Source of the DNA: Octopus vulgaris
Taxonomy: Eukaryota
Direction of reading: 5' to 3'
Assembly (NCBI GenBank): GCA_951406725.2
Contig: OX597819.1
Location: 60,698,001 to 60,762,000, forward strand
DNA: 64,000 nucleotides
In this document: one piece after another, positions 418-41,040 of the stretch
Layout: every line of letters starts with the position of its first letter
Position numbering within the stretch: the first letter of the stretch is position 1
Made by a program: the position numbers and the translations under genes
Notes under the pieces: model-generated
What the model saw: the letters and a program-made list of their open reading frames with translations, nothing else
The model's database searches: none
What the model was told of the DNA's origin: nothing

Positions 418-1328
418 CTGCACTTTCTTCAGGTTGGGTAACCATGTATTTCCTTTGCAGTAGCGAACCTATTTCTGTCTTCAGTCCTGATCTCTCTCTC
501 TGGCCGGGCAACCTTGTACCCCCTCTAAAGCAAGACACCTGTTTCTATCTCACAATAACCTTTCATCATCTGACACAAGAGCACCTCCTCCAATGCCCCC
601 TCCCCTCTCAAAAGAAATTTTTTTTGTCTTGCAAGTACTTTGTGACCCTGTCAGTGCAGGTGCCACTTAAAAGCACCCAGTCCACACTGTAAAGTGGTTG
701 GTGTTCAGAAGGGCATCCAGCTGCAAAAACCTTGCCAAAACTGACCTTGCCTGCGCTTGAGCCACGCAAAAAGCACTAAGTCTATTCTGCTGAGTGGTTG
801 ATTTTAGGAGTGGCATCCAGCTGTAAAAATCGTACCAAAATGATCACAGAAGTCTGGTGCAGCCTTCCGCCTGACTGGCTCTTGTGAAACCGTCCCACCC
901 ATACCAGCATGGAAGGCGGATGTTAAACGATGGCAATGATGATGAAACTAAAGCCTGGAGTACACCTAGTAACAGATGATCTTGAAGTGATACAACCTGA
1001 TCCCTCAACCACTGTTTCCTATCACTAATGGAATTAATTCTTTAGTACTTAAGCCAGTTTAGCCCTATACATTCTCCTCGTTTTATGTTCAAACTAGCCA
1101 GATCAAGCTTCTCACTCTTACCCTACAATGTCATTCTAAAAATAAACAATCACATCATTGACGATGATGATGATGAAATCTCAAAGCTATGAGATAAGGC
1201 ATGATTAATTCAAAACAATGTGAATAAATAAACATAATATTTGCCAGAATATTAGTACTAAGCTAAAGGATTAAATAAACAGAAATTCAATAAATTTCAG
1301 AGGTAAACAGAAATAAATGATAAATTAC

Positions 1329-1425
1329 CTGTATTTAGTTTACATTTCAATTTTCCTTTCACTTGTACAGATTTTGAATCCACATGACATCCTGACTGTG
1401 TAAAATCATTAATCCGAAATGTGAG
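1329..1425 (-). CDS. AP5M1: AP5M1 exon 13 (LTFRINDFTQSGCHVDSKSVQVKGKLKCKLNT); terminal exon not found in window
   Basis: Similar to [22 protein letters not shown]. Ends with a donor. The 13 exons splice to 1390 nt with no stop codon. Confidence 0.92.
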
Positions 1426-3329
1426 CTGACAAAGAGATTAATGGAAATTTGCTTTAATTTTGCAAAATAAATGTGAAAATATAAATTTATAGAATAGAAT
1501 GAATGAATGGATGGAGAGAAAGATAAACATGAGATGAATGTCTTAGTAGCAGTGTGAAGATATAAAAGGATGGTGACTTATGGACATTGATATCATTTTA
1601 ATGTTCACTTTTCCATATTTGCAGGGGTCAGGTGGAGTTTATTGAGGCAGATTTTCTATGGCCAGATGCTCTTCCTGCCACCAACCCTCACCTCTTTCCA
1701 AGGAAAATAATATTTCCCCATGGTTAGACATGTTTCTGCAGGATATTGGAAATTAATGGCACTGCTTGTGTGACAGTGACACTCATTTACAACTATCATA
1801 TCGTTGTCATTTTGCAAAAGTGTTGTAAGTTCAAAACATTGCTTTTTCAGAAAATGAAAAAAATAGTTTTACCATTCCATTTCTTTGTCCATTAGCAACA
1901 GTTTCAGCTTAACAGTAATACTTTGGTGGGTTGTGTAAAATTGTAAACTCCATGAATGTACGAAATTTTCAGTCAGAAATATTTTGCAAAACTGTCATAT
2001 GTGGGACTTACTACACTTTTGAAAAATGCTAACCTGTTGTACTACATTTTGACAATTTTCATATCTTGGCATCTGAAGCAGCTGGAGATATGATAGGTTG
2101 ACTAAAAGGACTGGCTATTGCAAACAAAATTGAATATTGAAAAAAAGAATGCATTTGGCCAAACTTGGACATACGATCCTTTAACATGATAGCAACAATA
2201 TGATGCCAAGACAAGGAGACACAAATATATAAAAACATACAGACACACATATATATATACACAAAAAGTTTCTCTCAGTTTCCATCTATCAAATCCACTC
2301 AAAAGGCTTTAATCGGCTTGGGACAATAATAGAAGACACTTGCCCAAGGAGCTATGCAGTGAGACTGAACCTGAGACCCTGTGGCTGGGAAGCGAACTTC
2401 TTAACCATACAGCCATATCTGTGTCAGGAACCACGACTTTCAGAAATATTTGTTCAAGCTCAGAGTTGTTGAAGTATGTAATAAATTACATGCATCAGTT
2501 GTTAGCTGTCAGGACAGTGTAGTCTCCAAAAATTCCTCATTTCCTGAAATTCACCAATTCTATTCCTGATGTGTCTGAATATCCATTCCTCTTTATGGTT
2601 CTTTTCTGTTCACTTTTGTGTCGTTTTGTGTTTTATTTTTTCTCCTGTGCATGTACTTCTAGCCTTTGTTGCCGTCTTTCATTACTTGACTTACATGTTT
2701 GCTCTCTGTCCCTTCTTTTAACTTTTTCCAACGAAGTAGGTACTTTTTCCAATAGGTAGGGGGCTCTGAAAGGGGTCTCAGGGAGTAGCATCCCTGCCTT
2801 CCTGAGCTAGTTTTCCACCACATTTCTTAAAAATCATGGTGGAGGCTTTGGTCTCAGGACCACTCATGTCTAGAAACTGAGGTTGGGGGTAAGCAAGGGC
2901 ATGCTCCCTGTAGAAAATCCAGCTCCAAAAAAGCTTCATGATAGCAAGGGAGAATGGGCGCCAGCCAGCCCAAAGGTTGGGGTGGGCTGCACCTGCCTAC
3001 TTCACTTGCTATGGCATTGAGGTGGATCCGGCTACCCCCGTTAATGGGGACAAAACCCAAATTTAAAACACTGGATGATGATGATGATTGTAGTGCACTT
3101 GAGCACTGTATGCAACAAACTAGTTATTGGCAGAATTATTAGCACACTGGATGAAATGCTTAGCAGTATTTTGCCCATTGCTATGTTCTGAGTTCAAATT
3201 CTGCTGAGGTTGACTTTGCCATTCATCCTTTCAGGGTCAATAAATTAAGTACCAATGAAACATTTGGGTCGATGTAATCAACTTCTTCCTGCCCCACAAA
3301 TTTCAGGCCTTGTGCCTTTAGAGGAAAGG

Positions 3330-3370
<41 letters not shown>

Positions 3371-3633
3371 CATCATCACTACTACTACTGCTACTAACAC
3401 TACTACTTCTTAAGGCAATGAGTTGGCAGAACTGTTAACATGCTGGATAAAATGCTTAGTGGCATTTAAGTTCTCAGTTCAAATTCTGCTACAGTCAACT
3501 TTGCCTTTCATCCTTTCGGAGTTGATAAAATAAGTACCAGTCGAGCATTGAAATCGAAAAAATTGACTTGCTCCCACCCCAAAACTTGCTAGTCCTGAGT
3601 CAAAATTTGAGATCATCATCATCATCATCATCA

Positions 3634-3665
<32 letters not shown>

Positions 3666-4723
3666 GTTGTTGTTGTTGTTATTATTATTATTAATATTAT
3701 TATTGAGGTGGCAGAGCCATTAGCACACTGGACAAAAAAACTTAGCAGCATTTCACCTGTCTAAGTTCTAAGGTCAAATTCCACTGAGGTTGACTTAACT
3801 TTTCATCCTTTCAGAGTCAATCAAATAAATACCAGTCACATACTGGGGTCGGTTTAATCAACTTCCCCTCCCCTCAAAAACTGCTGGCCCTGTGCCAAAA
3901 TCAGAAATCATATTATTATTATTATCACTACTTCCTGATGTATCACCCTTCCTGTCGATTTCAAGTGCCTATTTTTCTGAATATTTGTAAGAACTACACC
4001 AGTGACCATCCTTTAAAACCTGTTGAACTCAAAACACTCATCAAACCACAAATGAGCAGCATGTTAAGTAGCCACCTGGGTCATATGTGTGGCTACTTAA
4101 CATTTTTATTGTGGCCCACTTGGAAGTGTTGTACACAGTTAGAGTGCTCCATTCAGAACATATTCATATTGCATTTTGACAAATGTTGAAGCTTCCCTGG
4201 TTCAGTATTGATGTGAGAATAAGGCGGCAAGCTGGCAGAATTGCAAGCACGCCAAGCAAAATGCTTTATGGCATTTCGTCCATCTTTACATTCTGAGTTC
4301 AAATTCCATCACAGTTGACTTTGCCTTTCATCCTTTGGAGGTCAATAAAAAAAAAAAAACAGTTGAACACTGAGGCTGATGCAACTGACTTATGCCTTTC
4401 CCAAAAATTGCAGGCCTTGTGCCAAAATTTGAAACCAATATTGATAAGAGAAAATCATTAAGAATGTTATTAATGATATAGCTGTGTGTTTACTCTTGTA
4501 CTGGTTTCAGTCATTTGACTGAGGCCATGCTAGAGCACTGCCTTTAGTCGAGCAAATCGACTCCAGGAGTTATTCTTTGTAAGCCTAGTACTTATTTTAT
4601 TGGTCTCTTTTGCTGAACCACTAAGTTACAAGGACATAGACACACCAGCATCAGTTGTCAAGCGATTTCAGGGAGGTGGGGGGGAGAGGCACATATATAC
4701 ACAAATAAATAAATACATACATA

Positions 4724-4783
<60 letters not shown>

Positions 4784-22839: not shown

Positions 22840-24133
22840 TGTGTACAGTGCTCAGGTGCACTACAACTCATCTAAAGTGTATATATAATCAGGTGTAGTT
22901 TCGGCGGATTTCGGAAAGCATGAGGGCCTTAAAGGATGCAGTGTCATGGCAGTCAACAACTGACGCAGGCAGTTTATTCCATGCTTCAGCAACTCTGAGC
23001 GTGAAAAAATGTTTCCGAAAGTCATGGGAGCTGTGTTGTTTTCTGACTTTGTAGGCATGTCCACGTGTGTTAGACACATGGAGATCAAAAAGGTGTTCAG
23101 TGTTGTTGTTGGTGAGGTGGTTGATAACTTTGTGGGTGTTTACCAAGTCCGTCGCCAGACGCCGGAGCCTCAGTGAATCCATGCCCAGGGAAACAAGGTG
23201 CTCAGAATATGGTAGGTGTCTGATGGAGGGTATGCGTTTGGTTGCACGTCTCTGGACAGATTCCAGGAGGTCAATGTTCTGAGCAAGATAGGGGTTCCAA
23301 ACTGATGATGCGAATTCCAAGTGTGGTCATACCATAGCTGTATACAGTTTTAAATAGATGGCGGGAGAGCGGCTAACAAAAGTCTTGCTGAGTGATGCCA
23401 AGACACCCTCGGCCTTCTTGACAATTTTAGAGATATGCTTTGTCCAACGCAAATCACTGCTGACAGTGATGCCTAGGTCACACTCGCAGGAGGATTTCTT
23501 GATATCAGTGTTGTGGAAGGAGTATGTGGATGCAGGGTTTTTTCTCCCAAAATGCATGGTGGTACACTTGTCCACAGCCAGTTTCAGTTGCCAGTCTGTG
23601 ATCCATTGCTGCATAGTGTCTAGGTCTGATTGCAGGAAAGAGTTGTAGACATCAGGATCTGTCCTCTTGATTTCAAGGTACAGCTTGATGTCGTCTGCAT
23701 ATTTCAATACTGTGGCATTCTTTAAATTGGCATCTATGTCATTAATGTATGCCACAAACAAGAGGGGACCAAGGACAGATCCCTGCGGTACACCAGATGA
23801 CATCTCATATGGTGTAGAATGCTGTCCTAGAACTGTGACTACCTCCTTTCGGCTGAGAATGAAGGATTTCAACCAGTTAAAAAGGTCATCCCTCACACCC
23901 ATTGCAGAGAGTTTCACCATAAGCCTTTTGTGTGGCACAGAGTTGAAAGCCTTAGCAAAGTCAAGGTAGACAACATCCACCCATGAGCCACTGTCAGTGA
24001 TCTGAGTAATGTCCTCAAGGAACTCGACAAGCTGATCACTGCAGCTGGAGTTAGGGACAAATCCATATTGCGAGGGTCGGATGAGACTGTGAGAGCTCCA
24101 GAAGTTCCAGAGTGTTTCTCTGACACACGATTC
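22788..24133 (-). mobile_element. 5'-truncated CR1/L2-type LINE (RT and C-terminus) with (TTA)n tail, inserted into a SINE
   Basis: YLDFAKAF, GVPQGSVLGPLLF, YADD and TRGH...FFTLRVAEAWNKLP; single in-frame TGA at 23327-23329; flanking CATCTT repeats at 22782-22787 and 24134-24139. Confidence 0.92.
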
Positions 24134-24740
24134 CATCTTGGGCAAGTATCTTCTACTATAGCCTCAGGTCAACCAAAGCTTTGTGAGTGGATTGGTAGAC
24201 GGAAACTGAAAGAAGCCTGTCATATATATATGTGTGCATATGTGTGTGTGTGTGTGTGTGTTTGTGTCTGTGCTTGTCCCCCATCACCACTTGACAACTA
24301 ATGCTGGTGTGTTTACATCCCTGTAACTTAGCAGTTCAGCAAAAGGGACCAATTCAATAATTCTACAAAGAATACGTCCTGGGGTTGATCTGCTTGACTA
24401 AAATCCTTCAAAGCAGTGCTCCAGCATGGTCACAGTCAAATGACAGAAAGAAGAGTCATCATCATCATCACCACTGTTTTCACGTCCACTTTTTGATGCT
24501 TGCATGGGTCAGATGGAATTTGTTGAAGGAGATTTTCTAAGGACAGATGCCCTTCCTGTCAACAACCCTCAACTGTCTCCCAGTAAGGCAATATTCCCCC
24601 ATGGCCAAATGTATTTTCATGGAAGATTGGAAATGAAAGACACAACATGTGTGACAGTGATACTTGTATCTATCATAGATCAAAACAAAGCACCATAAGA
24701 CAAACACACCCACACTAATATATATATATGCATTTGTGTG

Positions 24741-35100: not shown

Positions 35101-35163
35101 TGTAAGTTCTTAACCACACAGTTAGATTAGAAGATAATTTTAAGATTTAGAACAAAAAAATAC

Positions 35164-35290
35164 CTTGTTCAATTTAGAGTTTGTTCTGATGCAATTAAAA
35201 AGGTTTTTTGTAAATTCAGTATTCTGTGGAATTGGAACATATTGGTCTTTTTCAGTCAGGACTGTCCATTTCTCAACTGTAGGAAATCGT
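35164..35290 (-). CDS. AP5M1: AP5M1 exon 2 (RFPTVEKWTVLTEKDQYVPIPQNTEFTKNLFNCIRTNSKLNK)
   Basis: ttttgcag acceptor and GT donor; matches the RYPTVEK...YVPVP motif of AP5M1; phase-consistent. Confidence 0.9.
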
Positions 35291-36571
35291 CTGCAAAATA
35301 ATTAAATAAGTATGAAGTATAGAGCCCGTAATAAGTGCAGAGGATCAGCAACTGTTGTGCTCTGATATAATCAACCTTACCTGCACCTACCACAGCCACA
35401 ATATCAGGTATTAAGAGTGCCTCTAAACAGTCACACAACTTGCTAGAAATAGCAGGAAAATCGCTCTCAAATCAAACCTATTGAGGTCAGATAGTTGGGG
35501 CATGAACTGTTACAGTGCATCACTGCAACTACCATTCGTTAGCATTTACTCAGGTTGACCTGGGCAACCCTCTGTGCAGTGTCCTAGTCACTCCCTATTT
35601 CTGCAAGATACTCCCTTATCCACTGAGACCATGTGGCATGTGGCAGACCAACACGAGCTGTCCACCCAAACTGGATCCTCAATGAAGGGAACACAATCAC
35701 AATATGCAGGATCTAACTTGGAAAATCAAGCAACATGACCAAACAGCCTGAGCTGATACTCCTATATTGTACAAGTAACCTACAGTCATAATATAAAAAA
35801 TGAAGAAAACACTTGATAATATAGCCCAGAGTATACTATGTTGAGATATAAATAAAAGATGGATGGTCATGACTTGGAATGCCTTTGATCATAGGTTTGC
35901 TCGATCAGAATCAATTTGGGTTCAAGTAACAACAAGCATAGAAAAATAGATTAGATGGTGGAGAGAATATATATCCAAATTGCAACATAGCATCCCACAC
36001 AATTAAGCACTGTATGTCAGCTAGACAGAGATATAATATATTTAGAATGATAAATCTAGGTTTTACATAGTTATGTAGTTCAGTAACTACATGCTATAAG
36101 TTTGCTTCAATAGAGCTAACTGGGAGTTTAACAACAAGAAAGTATGTGTTAAGCATAAACTGAAGCAACCTTTATATCTAAATCATGTGATATCATCATC
36201 AGCATTTAATGTCCTTTTTCTTCCACGCTAGTGTAGGTGAGATGGAATTTGTTGAGGTAGATATTCTACAGCCAGGTATCTTTCCTGTTGACAACCCTCG
36301 TGTGTTCTCAAGGAAGGTAATATTTCCCATGGCCAGATATGTTTTCCATGAAACACTAGAAATGACACCACTTGTATGATGGTGATGCTCGTTTACAACC
36401 AACATATAATATCAAAACAAGGTTACATACAAGGCTGTGATTGGCCTGGGGCTATAGTAGAAGACACTTGCCTAAGGTACCACTCAGTGGGACTGAACCC
36501 AAGACTACATGGTTGGGAAGCAAGCTTCTTAACTACACAGCTATGCTCGCCCATTTATATATATATATATA

Positions 36572-37301
36572 TAAAATTACATTTAATTCATTAATAGCGA
36601 AACAATTGTCCCAAAATAATCTGTATTTTTGTTATTTTTTATTTGCCCTGTCCGTGTGAGCTAACAATCGTACTGACTTTCATGGGAAACATGTATTTTC
36701 GTGGTTGAAACCTTTTGGATTAACTGGTGCTAGAGTGAGCAATATAGTGACCACTCTCTTATATTTATTTTTTAAAAATATTATAATATGTTATAAAATA
36801 TTATAATAATCCAGGTTTCTCGGAGCACTAGGCCACTTGGTGTTGAATAAATATACTATTAAATTAGTATCTAATTCTCTCACCCTTATTAATTAATTAT
36901 AATTATGCTGCATTTATTTCTAAATGCTGTATTTGTTTTCCGTGAAAGTTTGGCGCGCTGTTGGTTGGGGCATTTGAATTATAACGTCGGATGTAATCAA
37001 TTGAACCACACGCGTATTTATCGTTATGGTAAAATCTGGCGTGTGATTGAGTGGATTTCATCCAGATAGTTTTGGCTGACGAGCTACAAATGGATTTTTT
37101 TTGTAAGTAAAATTACATTTAATTCATTAATAGCGAAACAATTGTCCCAAAATAATCTGTATTTTTGTTATTTTTTATTTGCCCTGTCCGTGTGAGCTAA
37201 CAATCGTACTGACTTTCATGGGAAACATGTATTTTCGTGGTTGAAACCTTTTGGATTAACTGGTGCTAGAGTGAGCAATATAGTGACCACTCTCTTATAT
37301 T

Positions 37302-37307
<6 letters not shown>
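36572..37307 (+). mobile_element. Non-coding hammerhead-bearing retroelement (retrozyme or non-autonomous Penelope-like), partial tandem of a 536-nt monomer
   Basis: Identical 200-bp direct repeats at 36572-36771 and 37108-37307, (TA)n on both flanks, internal type I hammerhead, no ORF. Confidence 0.75.
37063..37159 (+). ncRNA. Type I hammerhead ribozyme
   Basis: Stem I cagatagttttgg/ccaaaataatctg; CTGACGA 37076-37082; stem II GCTA/TAGC; GAAA 37135-37138; palindromic stem III ACAATTGT; GTC cleavage triplet 37144-37146. Confidence 0.85.
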
Positions 37308-37385
<78 letters not shown>

Positions 37386-37899
37386 TCACACACACAAGTT
37401 GCAAAAAGGAATGGTTCTGTGGTTAAGAAGTCTGCTTCCCAACCATGTGGTTTCAGGTTCAGTCCCATTGTAAAGTACTTTGGCTAAGTATCTTCTACTG
37501 TAGCCACAGTATTGTGAGTGGATTTGGGAGATGGAAATTGAAAGGAGAAACTTTTTATGACATTTTAGAATTCAGAAGGTTAGCAAAATGAAAAAAACAT
37601 GATCCAGATCTTCCAGAACATAGTTTGGAAAATCCTACCATTAGACACAGTTTGTTGGCCCTTCATCTTTTAACTACCATACAGACAGTGAGAGAGAGGT
37701 GGTATTTTTCTGGGGGGTTTTTCTGGTGGTTTAAAAGTATATATGTATTATGTACATCTGTCTTTAAAGTTATGCTGTTAAATCAAAATAAGTTTGTCCA
37801 CTTCAATCAGCTAACTTCACTTTAGCACAGTGTATCAACTCTACTGAGACATCTGTGATAAAGTATGCAAAAGTTGATGTTGGAACAATTACATAGATA

Positions 37900-38240
37900 T
37901 TGATTACATGATGGAAGGTTATTGCATTTCCTTTTAATGCTGGAAATCAAAAATTCTTCATGTCCTTGATACAGCTGTTCCTATCTTTCAGGTTGTACTA
38001 ATTATGAAATATTTTGTGATATTTTGGGCATGACATCAGGGCCCAGAACCTTAGCACTCACTACAGAGAAGGTCAATGGAAAAAGGGGAAGGGTGAAACC
38101 CCAAAAAACGTTGGCTGGATGACATCAAAGAATGGATCAGAAGATCTCTGGCTGAATATTGCACAACCAAAGGAATCAATGGAGAGAGCTGATGCATGTG
38201 CCCATGGTCCCTGGCCCTCAGCAATGAGAAAAGGAATAGA
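37900..38240 (+). mobile_element. Decayed RTE-like LINE 3' fragment
   Basis: GKRGRV.P.KRWLDDIKEW-like translation near 38075-38140. Confidence 0.55.
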
Positions 38241-38783
38241 CAAGACTATATATCATCATCATCTTCATCATTTAACGCCTGCTTTCCATGCTGGCATCGG
38301 TTGGACGGTTTCACTGAGGACTGGCAAACCAGGAGGTCACACCAGGCCCTAATCTGATCTGGCAAAGTTTCTACAGCTGGATGCCCTTCCTAATGCCTAC
38401 CACTCTGAGGGTGTAGTGGGTGCTTTTACATGCCACCGGCATGAGGGCCAGTCAAACGGTACTGGCAATGGCCACGCTCAAATGGTGTTTTTTACATGCC
38501 ACCTGCACAGGAGCCAGTCCAGTGCCACTGGCAACGACCATGCTCGAATGTTGTTTTTCACGTGCCAGCAAGGCGACGCTGGTAATGATCATGCTCGAAT
38601 GGTGCTTTTTATGTGCCACTTGCATGGGACCCAGTCAGCGGCCTTGGCAGGGATCACACTCGGATGGTGCTCTTAACGTCCCACTAGCGCAGATGCCAGC
38701 CAGGCGGTGCTGTTATCGGCCACGTCAATGAATTTGATTTTGATAAAGTATATATATATATATATATATACACATACACACAT

Positions 38784-38955
38784 TTTATTTGTGTATTAAA
38801 GTTACCATTGGTTTCATGTTAAATATCTCAGCAATTCTTTAAGCTGATCACATAGAAAGATGCCAATGAACACCAATTTTTCTGTGATTTGCTTGAAGAA
38901 TTGTTGAGATATTTCCGTAACATGAAACGAATGGTAACCTTAATAAACAAATAAA
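38784..38955. repeat. Imperfect palindrome of about 170 bp
   Basis: tttatttgtgtattaaagttaccatt... pairs with ...aatggtaaccttaataaacaaataaa. Confidence 0.75.
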
Positions 38956-40969
38956 GAATCTTTATCAACCAATGCGATATGGAGCACTCATTCTCATTGT
39001 TCGATGTTTACATGTGTATACACACACACATGCCTATGTTTCAGTATATATGCATTGCACAGATTTATGGCCAAAGGTGCTTTCGTCATGTACATCTTTT
39101 TATATGTTTACATCGTCCAGTGTGTCTATTTCTTTTATTTGAAGATGGTACGGTGTGATTTGAAATAATTTGGCTGCTATTTTTAGCCCTCTCTTTATAT
39201 TTTAGAATGAAAAGGCGTGCGCTGGGACAGTGCATACAAACAGAAAGGAGTCAAACAAGACATCTCAGAGGAACTTATGTACGTTACAGCCCCTAGCTCA
39301 AGTCATCCCGTTTCATCTCTAGAGGTTAATAAATTACTCATAGTAATAAGCTTTGCACTAGGAACACACACACACACGTAGTTACTCTCCCCAGACACAA
39401 TAGATAAACTAAGTCTTTTGACAAATATACGATCTCCATCGTGGAAAACAATGTTGGAATACTAGTCACCTTGCCGGAATCGTTCCTTTTTGAGAGATAA
39501 TATTGTAACCAGTTGAGAGAAGAAATGATAGATAGAGCTGCTTGTAGTTGTAAAGTTCCAGATATTATGAAAGATACTATGTTTTCAATATTTTAATCAA
39601 GCTCTGAACGGTTAAATAAAATTATTGCTCGACAAGCATAGCATTTTCGATATGCAAATCCGACAACCGGTACTTGGTGTCTGTACAATGGAGAATGACA
39701 ATTGCTGTATGATTATGAGTTTTGTGACGAAATTTATGACATCAAATATAAGATTCTTAATAAAGTTAACAGTTTTATGCACTATTAAATGGCTAATATG
39801 TTTTCCACGCAGTGATTGTTTTAGTTGCAACATTGTCTCAGATCAAATCACTTGGTCAGACAAGTACATCTCCGAAGTATTAATTTTGAAGTAGTCTCCA
39901 GTTCATAAACGAAAACTGGAAAGTATGTATATACCATGCATTTACTGAAGCTATCAATATAAAAGATAAAATTACTCACTTGGGGGTTTAAAGGGATCTA
40001 ACGTACTGTTCTGTCGTGAAGTGGAAGACAGACAGTCAAACCAATAAAGTGAAGATAGTAAATTATGAAAGATGTTACGCGTAAAATTGTCATATCAAGA
40101 AATACTTTAAGCAAAGCAGTTTATTTGGTTAATGTTAACACTTTACTTCATTAGCTTGAAAAATAAAAAGCTTGTTACAGAAATCATTAAACCAACTATT
40201 ATTCTTCTAATAAAAAAATGGAATTACAGTCATATACATTATTTTCACCCCTGTCCGCATACCGGAGATGTCCGTACATCGATTTCTGCTATTAGTCTAT
40301 GGAGTACACCTACACCTAAAACAGAAACCACGCCACCTTACCGAATAGATTGAACTTCCAGTTCAACTATAAAGATAACACAATTTATGATTGCTATATT
40401 CATTTGAGTGTAACTACACATATGCTACAGTAGTTGGCAAATTCAAAGTATTCATCTGAATGTAGTAATCGTTATTTATCCTCCCTAAAGCATATTACAG
40501 GATACACAGAAATTATATAAACATTTATAAACGGACAGGGTCGATTATTTTATGACGATTGAAGAGCACAACGTTGCTTTGTGTTTATATTTTCTGCCTA
40601 ATTAACCATATGCCTGTATGGACATAAATAATACAATAGGTTACATATACATATGTACGTTAGTAAACATATACATATATATCAATACATCGAACATTTA
40701 TAGATACATTGAGAAATCAAAGCTTAGTCATAAGCAGACGTGAACAGTCGAATAGTTTTATCCAGGATTTCTTTATAAAAATTGTTATTTTAGAAATACA
40801 TTTTATTAAGTACTAATCTAGTAAAACGAATACAAATTACATACGAACATTATAACAAAACACATCAACACAAAAATAAGGGCCACCCTCAAGTTTGTTT
40901 ATATTAAAAGACGACGTACACTTCAACTATGTAACGGTAATAATGGGAAAATTAAAATGTAAAAAAGAC

Positions 40970-41040
40970 CTTGAAAATATTAGGTTCTGAGATGTTCCCG
41001 ACGATCCCATGTAATACACCCACAGTGACCGGATCTTCAT
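40970..41040 (-). CDS. AP5M1: AP-5 complex subunit mu-1, coding exon 1 (MKIRSLWVYYMGSSGTSQNLIFS-R)
   Basis: ATG at 41040. Peptide resembles the AP5M1 N-terminus (R..W....FSR). Phase-2 end joins exon 2 to give FSRRFPTVEK. Donor AAG|GTCTTT is weak. Confidence 0.8.

Follow-up and report, generated by a model that had tools for sequence, protein, structure and literature searches.

An octopus hammerhead retrozyme family whose two-armed insertions pair two fixed ends, as do Penelope-like elements of the same genome

A non-coding insert in intron 1 of AP5M1

The window analysed here is a stretch of 64,000 nucleotides from Octopus vulgaris (contig OX597819.1, positions 60,698,001 to 60,762,000 of the forward strand), in which the gene AP5M1 lies on the minus strand. 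A minus-strand exon at 25192-25425 matches AP-5 mu-1 with an E value of 2.2e-10, the exon at 35143-35301 does so weakly (E 0.16), and a contig of run X1, a run with spliced RNA, joins 40970 and onward to 35164-35290. Since this contig splices 40970 to 35290, the insert described below lies within intron 1 of AP5M1 (35291-40969) with its ribozyme strand antisense to the gene, as an earlier note on this DNA had placed it. No effect of the insert on AP5M1 is suggested. An extra A after 35153, just outside exon 2, is present in two DNA runs and would be an allele or an assembly difference. The features of the locus are listed below.

35164..35290, minus strand: AP5M1 exon 2 (host context)
36556..36571: (TA)8 tract on the left side of the target, adjoining the insert's random 5' end
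36572..37307, plus strand: whole insert, 1.37 retrozyme units in one arm, running from monomer position 498 (5') to site A (3')
36572..36771, plus strand: first 200-bp direct repeat, the end of one unit and the start of the next
36599..36610, plus strand: hammerhead half-site GAAACAATTGTC, without a core of its own; predicted cut after 36610
36611..37146, plus strand: 536-nt monomer from cut site to cut site, the predicted RNA circle (fold z -10)
36758..36771, plus strand: internal copy of site A (monomer about 161), an AU-rich fixed 3' end of family arms
36882..36901, plus strand: site B (monomer about 291), the second fixed 3' end of family arms, unused here
37063..37159, plus strand: complete type I hammerhead; predicted cut after 37146
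37108..37307, plus strand: second 200-bp direct repeat, its 3' limit being site A
37308..37384: (TA)n tract on the right side of the target, adjoining site A
40970..41040, minus strand: coding part of AP5M1 exon 1, ATG at 41040 (host context)

The insert comprises 736 bp between (TA)n tracts, and its two direct repeats (36572-36771 and 37108-37307) are identical at 200 of 200 bases with a period of 536. The motif GAAACAATTGTC occurs twice with this same spacing, at 36599-36610 and 37135-37146, so that both the exact repeats and the half-site in the first of them, with a 536-nt monomer between predicted cut sites, are as first described. The reported lack of an open reading frame also holds, the longest ATG frame being 54 aa on both strands and around the circle. 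The monomer of this locus is one substitution away from the commonest haplotype of the family, found in 11 of 71 loci.

A very abundant SINE-like repeat flanks the insert as an inverted pair (36446-36544 and 37411-37509, 78%) and is apparently unrelated to it. Also, a later AP5M1 intron contains, on the minus strand at 22892-24163, degenerate LINE-type reverse transcriptase frames of 278 and 145 aa, identified by eye.

The hammerhead ribozyme and the fold of the monomer

Stem I is formed by 37063-37075 and 37147-37159, with one A-A mismatch and one G-U pair, and is followed by the core CUGACGA at 37076-37082 (CTGACGA in the DNA, starting at 37076). Stem II is long, consisting of GCUA/UAGC plus a bulged extension, and stem III has 2 bp with an AAUU loop, the segment reading GAAAC-AAUU-GUC. 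The elements that define a type I hammerhead (a core of CUGANGA, GAAA and NUH, stems I to III, and an open stem I) are all present. The term minimal, used in the earlier note, is not suitable given the length of stems I and II. A scan with Rfam, one of the checks proposed there, gave no hammerhead family at E <= 5 and 8 weak matches only, probably because the long stem II is outside the range of the models.

The stems as first drawn are supported by a comparison of 25 distinct hammerheads of the family, picked for diversity with four junction-truncated ones omitted, where pairing is observed in 94.4% of cells, 27 cells are changed on both sides, and five stem I pairs show such two-sided changes. 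Either pairing value was reached in 0 of 500 shuffles and the slid controls all remained at or below 38%, the sequences being related, so that the shuffle counts are not probabilities. The core is intact and covarying, and self-cleavage is predicted.

The circular monomer folds with -149.6 kcal/mol vs -103.1 +/- 4.6 for 60 shuffles (z -10), and 9 of 169 consensus pairs of the circle fold present a two-sided change. In the best monomer fold the core is hidden, the computed active fold being 5.6 kcal/mol higher, and stem III would gain a computed 6.4 kcal/mol in a dimer. These energies would fit cleavage in multimers and a quiet circle. Moreover, since the AP5M1 locus contains a single whole ribozyme and half of another, release of the monomer would require the downstream core to cut the upstream half-site.

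A young retrozyme family

Matches to the insert number 158, spread over about 40 loci, and almost all are 97-100% identical, in agreement with the youth assigned to the element and not with an assembly artefact. The core 23-mer is found in 811 exact copies in the genome, which discards a single-copy locus, and the cut-site 15-mer in 2,597. Exact junctions with TA number 816 of the B kind and 329 of the A kind, giving a lower bound of at least 816 insertions, and this number, together with tandem non-coding units carrying one hammerhead each, sustains the retrozyme identity proposed before. The units form head-to-tail arrays with a maximum of 18. Their GC content is 32%, and the 200-bp repeats arise where a 1.37-mer overlaps itself; the arrays consist of simple tandem units, with no LTR pair around a unique core. 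Any duplication of the target site would be masked by the (TA)n tracts. A tRNA-derived SINE or Pol III origin was also considered, and the unit has neither an A box nor a strict B box, and no tRNA.

An older subfamily has units of about 490-500 nt, 72-75% alike, where the hammerhead is kept by compensatory change. Between 63 and 98% of sampled family words are present in twenty runs (seven studies, three organism labels), and contigs of three runs display a TA junction at site B or at most 5 nt from it. In run X1, contigs extend over the unit and across the cut site, although strand, level and circularity are not readable from contigs.

The family is real, young and new, non-LTR retrozymes being already published as a kind. 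Every retrozyme feature that could be settled from sequence is present, and cleavage and circles are predictions. No report of a cephalopod retrozyme, or of the pairing rule described below, was found in the literature, where closed papers and supplements may hold one.

Two-armed insertions have one A end and one B end

The ends of the insertions were surveyed at 89 loci (40 best matches and 49 from pattern lists on contig 1), of which 85 were classed, the omitted ones being three old-subfamily loci and one running off the fetched stretch; in three complex loci, outer or young arms only were taken. The arms have their 3' ends at either of two constant positions of the monomer, A (161) and B (291), counted from the cut site and both AU-rich, and 126 of 133 arm ends are joined to TA, in line with the preference for TA repeats that had been suggested. 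By contrast, the 5' ends are uniform around the unit (133 ends, p 0.63). The permuted ends anticipated by the earlier note are then true for the 5' side, whereas the 3' side is confined to A and B.

Two arms disposed head to head, with their 3' ends outward, are observed in 48 of the 85 loci. Among these young loci, 46 of 48 combine one A end with one B end, none is A+A or B+B, and 2 have one odd end (p 1.4e-14). Of the 37 loci with one arm, 17 have site A as their 3' end and 20 have site B. The 1.37-mer at AP5M1, correctly recognised as such, is a short one-armed copy ending at site A, where it would have been primed before running 1.37 turns; many family copies are two-armed. The longer arm is the A or the B arm equally, 23 each, and both arms exceed one unit in 19 of the 46 A+B loci. 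The junction lists were examined for neighbours within 15 kb, taking the first 100 of the 329 A junctions and the first 100 of the 816 B junctions; neither A-A nor B-B neighbours occur, and A-B pairs facing outward number 18, 3 of them at loci already counted. In the older subfamily, 16 two-armed loci read by eye gave 10 A+B, 6 with one odd end and no same-site pair. The spacing between A and B is about 100 nt there, so the sites follow sequence, not distance. For both subfamilies together, one odd end is found in 8 of 64 two-armed loci. Some second arms of the old subfamily (L207, L213, L221 and L223) have an odd end that falls no more than about 16 nt from the ribozyme cut site, and three of these ends lack a junction with TA.

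Four two-armed copies (L177 and the three tiny insertions L225-L227) have arms that are impossible as copies of each other, so each arm was primed on RNA, and fold-back of the cDNA as a general source of the inversion is ruled out at these loci. In the other 46 of 47 two-armed copies the short arm falls within the long arm and is compatible with fold-back. Near-symmetric junctions between arms were found in 13 of 47 (p 0.09), and 28 of 34 junctions without inserted bases have a microhomology of at least 1 nt (p 2e-5). A location of the junctions at predicted RNA helices is unsupported (5 of 44, p 0.08). A cleaved linear monomer as template was also rejected, 114 of 127 arms crossing the cut site. 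Only 3 of 133 5' ends lie at most 10 nt from this site, and the genome therefore bears no trace of cleavage.

The same rule in two families of Penelope-like elements

Two autonomous families of Penelope-like elements (PLEs), Neptune-like and Hydra-like, are present in the genome with many intact open reading frames. The first encodes a protein of 781 aa with a reverse transcriptase (RT) and a GIY-YIG domain, which we take to be Neptune-like from its motifs. Its ends are joined to TA at two sites about 40 nt apart, its hammerhead is a U3-A8 variant, and both two-armed copies found (2 of 2) are A+B. In one copy (L099), a 4.7-kb unit, an upstream frame of 479 aa (1068-2504, plus strand) overlaps the RT-endonuclease frame (2426-4768, plus strand), and the repeats of the 3' UTR are rich in TGACGTC and ATTGG words.

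The second family encodes a protein of 899 aa and has ends joined to TA at two sites about 160 nt apart. Among 28 loci examined, 11 of 11 two-armed copies in which both ends were found by motif are A+B; two others agree with the rule by BLAST, and in two more the second end is odd. The hammerhead of its pseudo-LTR (pLTR) is built like that of the retrozyme, with CUGAAGA, a long stem II and a palindromic tetraloop. The candidate clade label rests on motifs of the 899-aa frame (RWL, DKT, CNLC, CPH and YRDD), evaluated against the clade Hydra criteria available in PMC8557442, namely RWK-like and DKT motifs, an endonuclease at the C terminus with CxxC and CxH, a hammerhead and a (TA)n target. This frame has no significant match in Pfam, its RT resembles the Neptune-like protein weakly (E 1e-4), and its Atlas neighbours are in PLE-type clusters (0.96-0.98). 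At L141-L142 (G000:C1:119512500-119529900), at least three and a half copies of a 3.6-kb Hydra-like PLE follow each other head to tail, being 98-99% alike, and are possibly rolling copies of a PLE-sized circle.

The Penelope link of the earlier note is supported. 5' truncation, inverted copies, a tail at one end and a microsatellite target are PLE-like marks of the retrozyme insertions that both PLE families display.

Proposed mechanism

From the observed anatomy (tandem units, covariation of the hammerhead, TA junctions, two fixed 3' ends and random 5' ends), together with the A+B pairing in two-armed copies, the single haplotype per locus presented below and the same rule in the PLEs of this genome, we infer cleavage, circularisation and the identity of the helper. 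The probable scenario is that of a non-LTR retrozyme RNA copied by a PLE enzyme into nicked TA microsatellites from two fixed sites. First, a tandem transcript would cleave itself, probably as pairs of hammerheads held by the palindrome ACAAUUGU, and a host ligase would close the cleaved monomer into a circle. The GIY-YIG domain of the PLE would then nick both strands of a (TA)n tract, and two RT active sites, placed at A and B of the same RNA, would each extend one DNA end, rolling round the circle for 0.1 to 18 turns. Finally, the two cDNA ends would meet by a microhomology of 1-4 nt, producing the head-to-head pair; when a single priming persists, the cDNA from it would be joined to the other flank, leaving a one-armed copy such as that of the AP5M1 locus. 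A template with one A and one B, as is a monomer circle, or a dimer spanning both sites, would lead to strict A+B pairing, and both fit.

A broader and more tentative proposal, to which we give slightly less than even credence, is that PLE retrotransposition itself is an obligate twin priming at two sites of a ribozyme-made circle, with one fixed site per nicked strand and both reactions rolling. If true, this rule would explain the tandem repeats, the inverted copies and the one-sided tail of PLEs; the retrozyme would use it without pLTR homology, its 536-nt circle being a minimal substrate in trans, and every genomic array would be a repeated read of one RNA molecule.

One template per insertion event

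Substitutions amount to 0.19% within arms and 0.22% between arms of a locus vs 1.76% between loci (83 loci), and a variant is carried by both arms at 183 of 192 sites when about 56 are expected. There are 47 haplotypes among 71 loci, and L164, with 12.4 units, contains no substitution. Moreover, nine arrays of at least six units (L160, with large deletions, was omitted) have nine different haplotypes, each near-uniform inside. Against the circle, 13 minor alleles recur in several, mostly non-adjacent units of one array and in L173 one of them spans both arms; these are unexplained by a single perfect circle without a damaged base or gene conversion. A damaged template base, gene conversion or mixed templates would each give them. 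A-to-I editing of the template was rejected, A>G (17) and T>C (15) being without strand bias among 72 fixed alleles (p 0.28). Such recurrent alleles were seen in L173, L159 and J55 (L055+L070), two of them being fixed in other loci (L181, L182 and L041).

The recurrent alleles could also come from mixed donors if the same PLE helper and start sites acted on a linear multimer that is transcribed from long donor arrays and left uncut, the hammerhead being incidental to mobilisation and the enzyme dimer alone forcing the A+B pairs. This is unlikely, although it keeps a part of the probability, since in PMC11167929 hammerhead mutants are inserted equally well in vitro, ribozyme cleavage is unnecessary and unprocessed RNA is the main substrate. 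Also, the 5' ends do not pile up at the cut site, and the X1 contig that bridges this site fits an uncut multimer as well as a circle. However, each of the nine long arrays would need an equally long and uniform donor of its own haplotype, with 47 haplotypes among the loci compared, no series of minor alleles is common to two arrays (13 arrays, read by eye), and compensatory changes maintain stem I. The uniform arrays would be better explained by one monomer circle that is read repeatedly than by long donors or in-place growth.

In the latter case, the PLE machinery would insert short pieces that later grow in place by unequal crossover, which is the model of 10.64898/2026.07.22.740005 for pLTR-derived retrozymes and would account for a variant present in three adjacent units of L164. 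We consider it very improbable for this family: length and internal divergence of the arrays are uncorrelated (Spearman 0.06, p 0.69, 49 loci), the two inverted arms, when both exceed one unit, have one haplotype for both, the recurrent alleles occupy mostly non-adjacent units, and older-subfamily copies are short, within the view that flanks of 1.5 kb allow.

Relation of the unit to PLE sequences

The reading of the repeat as a mere pLTR or deletion derivative of an unlocated autonomous PLE family, without an independent RNA life cycle, is just as hard to sustain. It would be in accordance with the Xenopus data of 10.64898/2026.07.22.740005, where 24 of 57 retrozyme families match known transposable elements and 21 of 22 such elements are PLEs, and the comparison made here covered two of several PLE families in the genome. 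However, the unit was the 3' UTR of an endonuclease domain in 0 of 93 fetched stretches (two PLE protein queries, flanks of 1.5-3 kb), which also answers the concern, raised in the earlier note, that all copies might be attached to a coding PLE. Within the unit there is no RT plus GIY-YIG frame. The intact Hydra-like element possesses a pLTR that is unrelated to the unit, no match being found between the monomer and Hydra-like pLTRs, and the monomer has no significant sequence in common with the Neptune-like unit, the best match being an AT-rich 34-mer (E 0.013). A start-site motif common to the retrozyme and either PLE was sought, and only a weak AT-rich likeness was found.

In one copy, the retrozyme is joined to a fragment of a PLE RT. 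At L104 (7750-9170, minus strand), a 5'-truncated Hydra-like RT fragment, 98% identical to an intact copy, is followed in the same orientation by an old-subfamily retrozyme that ends at B, the whole lying between TA tracts. The joint has a 4-nt match and a short duplication, and falls in the middle of the RT, in disagreement with a derivation of the unit from a pLTR. L104 and L150 are a segmental duplicate, so one fusion event is counted. This suggests a template switch within one complex, although a single event could also be due to a later deletion between neighbours. Based on the proposed copying of a retrozyme RNA by a PLE enzyme, the Hydra-like PLE is, by a small preference, our candidate for the helper; next would be Neptune-like or Naiad-type families, TA-targeting Naiads being recorded for Octopus in the supplement of PMC8557442.

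Comparison with known systems

The pairing of two priming events recalls the twin priming of L1 elements. There, two target strands prime on one RNA, giving an inversion joined by microhomology, with the second priming at a variable internal site and arms that do not overlap. In the octopus family, on the contrary, neither site varies, and each of the two arms can extend over several units.

The closest biochemical counterpart of the proposal is the Anolis Poseidon element PAc in vitro, for which PMC11167929 describes two internal RT start sites downstream of the hammerhead, as proposed here, an AT-rich target with both strands cut and extended, and a predicted dimer. The start site is the same for both strands in that work, and the two sites of PAc are adjacent, AC-rich and non-homologous to the target, whereas those of the retrozyme are 130 nt apart, AU-rich and partly TA-matching. 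The pairing of different sites within one event, seen here, is unreported for PAc in the sections of PMC11167929 compared.

With endonuclease-bearing (EN+) PLEs, especially those of the clade Hydra, as portrayed in PMC8557442, the retrozyme has in common the targeting of (TA)n, copies that are truncated at the 5' side and arranged both in tandem and inverted, a tail that is often restricted to one end, and a hammerhead upstream of the 3' ends. The same source mentions non-autonomous Chlamys elements in head-to-tail copies. Unlike these PLEs, the retrozyme has no open reading frame, and its tail measures 130 nt (about 100 in the old subfamily) vs 30-40 nt in PMC8557442. The tail is attributed there to a resolution mediated by the endonuclease, whereas the tail of the retrozyme acts like a second site of priming, employed a single time in each event.

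As for metazoan non-LTR retrozymes, the family is alike in its non-coding tandem units with one type I hammerhead each and in its co-occurrence with PLEs (PMC7229834). The weak palindromic stem III is like that of axolotl HHR_Amex2, minimal and U3-A8 hammerheads being described in PMC4209133, and the low GC and the strongly self-paired predicted circle are also common; the 536 nt are within the range of 51-972 given in 10.64898/2026.07.22.740005. Circles were demonstrated in coral, mussel and axolotl (PMC7229834, where PLEs are proposed as helpers), whereas here they are predicted, and a homologous pLTR was not found in the two PLE families compared. Fixed ends, TA targeting and head-to-head arms are not described in the portions of these sources compared. 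The vertebrate families of 10.64898/2026.07.22.740005 are tied to pLTRs, with local array growth favoured, a Penelope helper proposed and cleavage in 1 of 9 Xenopus dimers, and the portion of the review PMC7761336 used here reports no motif that points to a helper.

The link between animal retrozymes and PLEs consisted so far of co-occurrence and pLTR similarity, to which this family adds evidence at the level of insertions. A non-coding repeat and autonomous PLEs follow the same strict rule for their ends, and each array seems to have been long from birth, copied from a single template; the origin of tandem, inverted and tailed PLE insertions is described as open in the parts of the sources compared. 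Moreover, the family offers a small testable system, comprising an RNA of 536 nt, start sites mapped at two positions, TA as the target, and candidate enzymes encoded intact by the same genome, in which to ask if circles serve as the template and if the two RT sites cooperate. A defined trans substrate of PLEs would bear on tools for RNA-templated gene insertion.

The genome seems to carry several further retrozyme or pLTR families. Other hammerhead repeats, with different stem III palindromes, are located at L079 (100-570) and L109 (2970-3533), with single matches at L159, L176, L074, L152 and L172, and some of them are inverted or tandem and adjoin TA tracts. In or near several TA-rich stretches (L032, L066, L070, L109 and L140), retrozymes, PLE fragments and other hammerhead repeats are often found side by side, and such tracts look like common hot spots.
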